Of a DNA stretch of 64,000 nucleotides, positions 3,547-3,900 are shown one piece after another. The notes under the pieces are model-generated. The model was not told the origin of the DNA. It made no database searches and saw only the letters and a program-made list of their open reading frames with translations. The DNA lies in NCBI RefSeq assembly GCF_024223415.1, contig NZ_CP100500.1. One strand, 5' to 3'. This DNA is from Escherichia coli (GTDB lineage Bacteria; Pseudomonadota; Gammaproteobacteria; Enterobacterales; Enterobacteriaceae). Within the stretch, counting starts at the first letter, position 1. Every line of letters begins with the position of its first letter. The position numbers were made by a program, and so were the translations under genes.

Positions 3547-3900
3547 AACGATCTCCTGAAGAAGAGGTAACCGGGTATTCCACACACCCGGAATGTTGTG
3601 CACTCACTCTAATTTTCAAAAGTAATCACAACAAGATTATTTATGATTAAATGTGACGCGACCCGCAAATAATTCCACATGGATAGAGTGGGATTCACAC
3701 AACGAAACAATTATTCATTTAAATTCATTTAGTTAATTGAATTACACATTCCATTAAATCTTTCCATACTCAAAATCAACAACAACTTTCCTGGCAAAAA
3801 GTCAAAAAATGGTCATTGCCTTCCTGAAAAAATAGTGTCAGGATTAATCAAAACCAATCACATATTGATTCGAATTGAACTATCATGAAGGTAAATGGCG
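3547..3900. promoter_or_regulatory. AT-rich divergent ulaG / ulaABCDEF control region (expected UlaR operators, CRP/IHF sites)
   Basis: ~350-bp AT-rich gap between divergent ulaA and ulaG starts; individual operator sites not mapped by me. Confidence 0.5.

Follow-up and report, generated by a model that had tools for sequence, protein, structure and literature searches.

Phased pentamer arrays, a CRP-like site, and an IHF-like island in the divergent ulaA-ulaG control region of Escherichia coli

The DNA analyzed here is a 64-kb stretch (64,000 nucleotides) of an Escherichia coli genome, hereafter the window. The genes that flank it and the motifs that it carries identify the spacer between ulaA and ulaG as the region from which the l-ascorbate (ula) regulon of E. 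coli is divergently transcribed and controlled. Regulation of this spacer by UlaR, CRP, and IHF is an already known system, established by experiment some twenty years ago. We consider it highly probable that control of the divergent region is explained by arrays of UlaR sites and an IHF-assisted loop, with CRP acting on ulaABCDEF only. The non-random features of the spacer are two phased pentamer arrays, which lie elsewhere within it than the repeats cited in a preliminary description of this DNA. What is added here over the K-12 work, as derived from sequence comparison, are de novo coordinates, a reading of each operator set as four pentamers, a proposed position for IHF, and a quantization of the spacing in helical turns across species.

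Genes, conservation, and composition of the spacer

The start codons of ulaA (ATG, 3544–3546, minus strand) and ulaG (ATG, 3901–3903, plus strand) bound a spacer of exactly 354 bp at 3547–3900, in line with the approximately 350 bp that had been estimated between the divergent starts. ulaA occupies 2149–3546 on the minus strand, with ulaB, ulaC, and ulaD downstream of it. On the plus strand, ulaG (3901–4965) is followed downstream by ulaR (5073–5828). All six products (UlaA, UlaB, UlaC, UlaD, UlaG, and UlaR) matched their NCBIfam equivalog models, and the RefSeq annotation, including that of K-12, agrees with these identities. The product of 5073–5825 matched the UlaR equivalog NF010034 with E = 2e-146 and gave weaker matches to SrlR, GlpR, AgaR, and DeoR. 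Judged by such models, the regulator encoded downstream of ulaG combines a DeoR-type HTH with a sugar-phosphate-binding domain, and is of the DeoR/GlpR type.

Shine-Dalgarno sequences were read at 3553–3557 for ulaA (AGGAG, minus strand) and at 3887–3891 for ulaG (GAAGG, plus strand). An extra in-frame ATG at 3895 precedes the annotated ulaG start by two codons. In other genera this codon is thrown out of frame by a 1-nt deletion, an observation in favour of 3901 as the true start of ulaG.

Of 5426 complete E. coli genomes, 5220 carry the spacer by RefSeq annotation, and about 200 gave no match whatever. The K-12 spacer differs from that of the window at 2 of its 354 positions and has the same flanking genes; the orientation of the ula locus in the window is inverted relative to K-12. 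In E. coli E138 (NZ_AP022351.1), IS1X4 replaces the ulaA side of the spacer, with a breakpoint at ~3685. The segment from ulaA to part of ulaE is deleted in this strain and array A and the CRP-like site (both described below) are gone; the IHF-like island, array G, ulaG, and ulaR are retained.

A genome-collection scan with UlaG yielded 80 Enterobacterales loci for comparison, 79 of which contained both gene starts. The boundary codons (CAT and ATG) are conserved in 79 species, and the spacer measured 351–370 bp in all but a few of the 79 loci, the longest reaching 440 bp. Alignment revealed conserved blocks at 3606–3672 and 3814–3880, together with an island at 3719–3736, with practically no conservation elsewhere. 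In three divergent E. coli alleles, every variable position lay outside the pentamers, the promoter hexamers, the CRP half-sites, and the positions specified for IHF.

The GC content of the spacer is 34.5%, compared with 51.8% for the whole window, and falls to a minimum of 26% at 3700–3799. These values confirm the AT-richness noted in the preliminary description, which had also pointed to many short direct and inverted repeats. The latter did not hold up. Counts of direct and inverted 7-, 8-, and 9-mers equaled those of 1000 dinucleotide-preserving shuffles (P = 0.4–1.0), and a listing of short repeats in the spacer consisted mostly of short two-copy matches. A general excess of repeats was rejected on these counts. 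The 43-mer quoted as an example (3718–3760) lies over the IHF-like island and not over the putative UlaR operators. The wider reading of the spacer as a ula control region with UlaR, CRP, and IHF sites is sustained by conserved motif matches of all three kinds; a lack of matches to the expected operator motifs had been named as the result that would count against it, and on inspection the matches were present.

Phased pentamer arrays and predicted promoters

The putative UlaR operators take the form of two 35-bp arrays, one at each promoter. Array A (TTTCAaaagtAATCAcaacaAGATTatttaTGATT), at the ulaA promoter, spans 3614–3648 with its centre at 3631. Array G (AATCAaaaccAATCAcatatTGATTcgaatTGAAC), at the ulaG promoter, spans 3846–3880 with its centre at 3863. 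In K-12 coordinates, arrays A and G correspond to 4419878–4419912 and 4419646–4419680, respectively. Both have the architecture AATCA-N5-AATCA-N5-TGATT-N5-TGATT, i.e. two forward and two inverted pentamers in 10-bp phase. The pentamers begin at 3614, 3624, 3634, and 3644 in array A, and at 3846, 3856, 3866, and 3876 in array G. This repetition of a half-site on one face of the helix (~10-bp phase) is present in both arrays and likewise in 79 species.

At three or fewer mismatches, arrays A and G were the sole matches to the pattern in the 64-kb window (0.01 expected); since the pattern was drawn from this same region, the enrichment is post hoc, and the independent support comes from the comparison across species. 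A weight matrix built exclusively from non-Escherichia orthologues scored the arrays at 44.7 and 36.5 bits, with the next unrelated match in the 64-kb window at 6.3 bits. Both arrays occur in all 79 other Enterobacterales species. Among the divergent E. coli alleles, array A showed zero variation. Within E. coli, variation in array G was confined to the spacer bases between pentamers.

Each array overlaps one predicted promoter and splits into two pentamer pairs, and we infer that UlaR is the protein which occupies both arrays. One study describes four operator sequences bound by UlaR and a tetramer-to-dimer switch upon ascorbate-6-P (PMC3219644). In two gSELEX reports, the ulaG-ulaA spacer contains a high-affinity UlaR peak (PMC4797297, PMC5934670), and two UlaR sites are listed for ulaGp in a 2024 study (PMC11661191). 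A fifth, weaker pentamer-like element accompanies each array, one turn toward the spacer centre. TGTCA (3836–3840), before array G, overlaps the ulaG extended -10, and TGACG (3654–3658), after array A, overlaps the left half-site for CRP. These elements may permit competition of UlaR with RNA polymerase or CRP, or may be due to chance.

For ulaA, the predicted promoter consists of a -10 hexamer TAGAGT (3606–3611, minus strand) and a -35 hexamer TTGTTG (3629–3634, minus strand) separated by a 17-bp spacer. Both are nearly invariant, the former as CACTCTA across the 80 sequences. The position of the -10 hexamer places the predicted +1 at ~3599 (K-12 ~4419927), such that array A covers about -15 to -49.

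For ulaG, conserved elements point to a -35 hexamer TTGCCT (3816–3821, plus strand) within which ATTGC is conserved, followed after a 17-bp spacer by an extended -10 composed of TG (3836–3837) and CAGGAT (3839–3844, plus strand), with GTGnCA conserved. The corresponding +1 is predicted at ~3851 (K-12 ~4419675), such that array G covers about -5 to +30. As a -10 hexamer the E. coli CAGGAT is poor, and other genera have CAATAT or TAGATT. Three A-tracts on the plus strand lie ahead of the predicted ulaG promoter and inside it: A5 at 3795–3799, A6 at 3804–3809, and A6 at 3826–3831. Their centres (~3797, 3806, and 3828) are roughly in helical phase. The A-tracts across 3795–3831 may confer intrinsic curvature or play an UP-element-like role.

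The start predicted from the -10 hexamer gives ulaA a 5' leader of ~53 nt (3547–3599, minus strand). This leader can fold into a GC-rich hairpin at 3571–3591 (minus strand; CCGGGUGU/AUACCCGG), with a folding energy of -16.6 kcal/mol and z = -1.8 for the leader as a whole. The C/U-rich stretch after the hairpin can pair with the Shine-Dalgarno. Hairpins occur at the same place in many species, with unrelated sequences. Across species, the z-scores of the leader (mean -0.68) barely differed from those of a spacer control (-0.33). As they were not clearly below the control, the claim of a selected structure in the ulaA leader was dropped. Folding of the predicted ulaG leader gave no structure.

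CRP-like site, IHF-like island, and helical spacing

A CRP-like site (AAATGTGAcgcgacCCGCAAAT, 3649–3670, centre 3659.5) adjoins array A and is found on the ulaA side only. Compared with the consensus AAATGTGATCTAGATCACATTT, the sequence AAATGTGACGCGACCCGCAAAT contains two core mismatches: its left half is perfect, while its right half-site, CCGCA, is weak (3/5). A rough weight matrix ranked the site 7th among the ~64,000 positions of the window. TGTGA and CGCA are kept in all species, and the central six bases vary, within E. coli too. Class I CRP-dependent promoters have a site centred near -61.5 from the transcription start. With its centre at about -60.5 from the ulaA +1, itself predicted from the -10 TAGAGT, the CRP-like site is predicted to sit at the class I activator position of ulaA. 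No comparable conserved CRP-like site for ulaG was found across the species alignment.

Placement on the ulaA side only matches the published activation of ulaABCDEF alone by CRP. In the 2004 work by Campos, CRP reportedly activated only ulaABCDEF. A preprint describes ulaABCDEF as repressed by IHF and UlaR and activated by CRP (bioRxiv 10.1101/2020.09.08.288738). A second CRP site at 3684–3699 was rejected for E. coli, where it has four core mismatches. Third in the 64-kb window by the rough matrix comes TAAAGTGAAAAGTATCACCCGT (3906–3927), a CRP-like match that covers ulaG codons 2–9. Located within coding sequence, at ~+65 from the predicted ulaG start, it is probably coincidental.

The island at 3719–3736 is isolated within otherwise unconserved spacer and keeps a fixed distance of ~134 bp to the array G centre. 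It contains an IHF-like core, ATTCATTTAGTTA (3723–3735, plus strand; centre at K-12 ~4419797), preceded by an A/T-rich tract (3710–3722). The E. coli core matched 7 of the 9 specified positions of WATCAANNNNTTR. No exact WATCAANNNNTTR was found in the E. coli spacer, and the IHF call is therefore based on a near-match together with conservation. Conservation within the island falls on precisely those columns that WATCAANNNNTTR specifies, the four N positions being mostly variable, and many orthologues carry AATCAATAAATTA, a perfect IHF consensus. It appears fairly probable from this pattern that 3723–3735 is an IHF site. Deletion of ihf derepresses ulaADEFG according to one report (PMC8546960).

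The main rival to the IHF assignment is that the island serves as an auxiliary UlaR half-site. This and the binding of another AT-binding protein, such as Fis or H-NS, would both have IHF acting elsewhere or non-specifically. The island core does contain ATCA, like the UlaR pentamer (A(A/T)TCA), and the E. coli island departs from the IHF consensus at two positions. According to the 2024 study, it is unknown where IHF regulation of ulaGp takes place (PMC11661191). However, a second pentamer at +10 of the island is absent, and the conserved columns, which are those that WATCAANNNNTTR specifies, include a TTR triplet 6 nt downstream. The perfect consensus in many orthologues and the published IHF-dependence of repression also argue against a non-IHF island, which we regard as unlikely. 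More doubtful again is a different ulaG promoter, composed of a -35 ATCACA (3857–3862) and a -10 TATCAT (3881–3886), which would place array G over the -35 and spacer and so mirror the ulaA layout. Although this pair was the sole promoter-like match of an automatic consensus scan, one match does not exceed the shuffle level (mean 1.4). The hexamer at 3881–3886 is unconserved, whereas TTGC and TGnCAnnAT upstream are conserved. Transcripts from this pair would start at ~3893, downstream of the Shine-Dalgarno GAAGG (3887–3891). As its place is unconserved, its start lies past the ribosome-binding site, and the match count is not above chance, the pair was rejected as the ulaG promoter and ranked as a rival only. 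The upstream promoter with a predicted start at ~3851 and the IHF site at 3723–3735 are retained as the preferred readings.

The centres of arrays A and G are 232 bp apart in Escherichia. Among the 80 sequences, the centre-to-centre distance was 231 or 232 bp in 10, 240–244 bp in 68, 251 bp in 1, and 246 bp in 1. At about 10.5 bp per turn, spacings of ~232, ~242, and 251 bp amount to 22, 23, and 24 helical turns. Between the island and arrays A and G, the arms measured 98, 107–108, 123, 133–135, or 144 bp, again in ~10-bp steps. The island lies closer to array A in Escherichia and Pseudescherichia. The arm to array G is shorter in Buttiauxella (2/4) and longer in Hafnia, and Superficieibacter shows compensating changes in both arms. 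Two sequences were off phase, one spaced at 246 bp (L073) and another with arms of 118 and 126 bp (L049). Given the relatedness of the species, most of the 241–243-bp spacings reflect shared descent, such that the phasing signal comes from ~6–8 independent indel events only. Apart from the two outliers, the aligned sequences indicate that the operator sets are an integral number of turns apart and that this phase is maintained in evolution. Indels in ~10-bp steps fit, and support, the published model of an IHF-assisted repression loop.

A contrary reading is that the AT-rich centre has no specific function, its repeats being compositional, its length a matter of descent, and repression local, with no loop. 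The repeat content is indeed that of shuffles, most of 3675–3813 is unconserved, and the 241–243-bp spacing is common to most species by descent. We nonetheless judge this reading very improbable, as length changes of ~10 bp arose in separate lineages and in either arm (Escherichia, Pseudescherichia, Buttiauxella 2/4, Superficieibacter, and Hafnia). Full repression is also reported, in the 2004 work by Campos, to require both promoters and IHF. The need for IHF in full ula repression is echoed in a later report (PMC8546960). A gene for a small RNA or small protein within the spacer is scarcely credible, with nothing to recommend it except spacer length. An Rfam search of the spacer returned no credible match, the sole match being to a eukaryotic lncRNA model (E = 0.12). 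Small ORFs in the spacer extended over only 21–36 codons and began with TTG or GTG, none of them credible, and a terminator scan of the spacer found no terminator-like site. Looping between phased operator sets remains the preferred explanation of the central spacer.

Proposed mechanism, related systems, and a candidate site upstream of ulaR

In the proposed mechanism, DeoR-family UlaR would occupy both 35-bp AATCA/TGATT arrays when ascorbate-6-phosphate is absent. Array A (3614–3648) would then lie over the ulaA -35 and spacer, and array G (3846–3880) over the ulaG start and early transcribed region. Because the 232-bp centre distance is an integral number of turns, UlaR oligomers could bridge the arrays to form a loop, and an IHF bend at 3723–3735 would aid its formation. 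Since each operator set overlaps a different promoter, one loop would silence two operons. Inducer would dissociate UlaR, after which cAMP-CRP at 3649–3670 (about -60.5) could activate ulaABCDEF only. The suggested pairing of proteins with elements, the two start sites, and the loop all agree with published genetics and biochemistry. The two four-pentamer arrays together provide eight half-sites, which implies more than one UlaR tetramer. More tentatively, and with slightly less than even confidence, we envisage a phase-locked three-element complex in which two UlaR arrays and a specific IHF site are held together and, across Enterobacterales, both arms change by whole turns only.

The ulaG-ulaABCDEF region of K-12 (Campos, Baldoma, Aguilar, Badia, J Bacteriol 2004; Garces et al., Biochemistry 2008) is the same locus, with no biological difference. 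Published for it are a pair of UlaR operators at each promoter, a loop assisted by IHF, and CRP action confined to ulaABCDEF, all of which have candidate sequence counterparts here. Like ula, the gal (GalR and HU), deo (DeoR octamer), and ara (AraC) loops have operator sets that are integral turns apart. In these systems, as in the ula model, both sets and a protein that bends DNA are needed for repression. They differ in loop size, which would be 232–251 bp for ula and is about 113 bp for gal.

The glpTQ-glpACB and glpD systems are controlled by GlpR, a DeoR-family tetramer which is released by a sugar phosphate and binds tandem operators of half-sites in 10-bp phase. Their promoters are divergent, CRP activates them, IHF is involved, and the repressor acts at a distance. 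GlpR-glp and ula have in common a DeoR-family repressor, phased operators, divergent promoters, CRP, and IHF. In contrast, the GlpR half-site is WATGTTCGWT rather than the AATCA of ula, and glp has intragenic operators.

Beyond housekeeping, the significance of the region is small, and the ula promoter is already in use for ascorbate biosensors. The gains are comparative, consisting of a concrete and testable position for IHF and a pentamer-level model of the UlaR operators. The indels in ~10-bp steps are a natural evolutionary experiment which supports looping, and could guide biosensor or promoter engineering.

Upstream of ulaR, the ulaG-ulaR spacer (4966–5072) contains a further pentamer series, TTTCAaaatatCATCTaaaaaAATCAaatttTATCG / TTTCAaatatCATCTaaaaaAATCAaatttTATCG, at 5029–5063 on the plus strand. 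It comprises four pentamers of the same orientation in 10-bp phase. Scored with a half-array matrix against the whole window, positions within 5029–5063 ranked 8th, 12th, and 14th. Most of the 80 sequences carry a near-invariant TTTCAAATATCATCT, placed at -44 relative to the ATG of ulaR. The series fits a weak gSELEX UlaR peak upstream of ulaR, which is described in two reports (PMC4797297, PMC5934670). On the strength of these motifs, 5029–5063 may be a candidate weak UlaR site, or may simply contain the ulaR -10 (TATCAT, 5036–5041). Considered jointly with the three-element complex, the series may join that complex or autoregulate ulaR.
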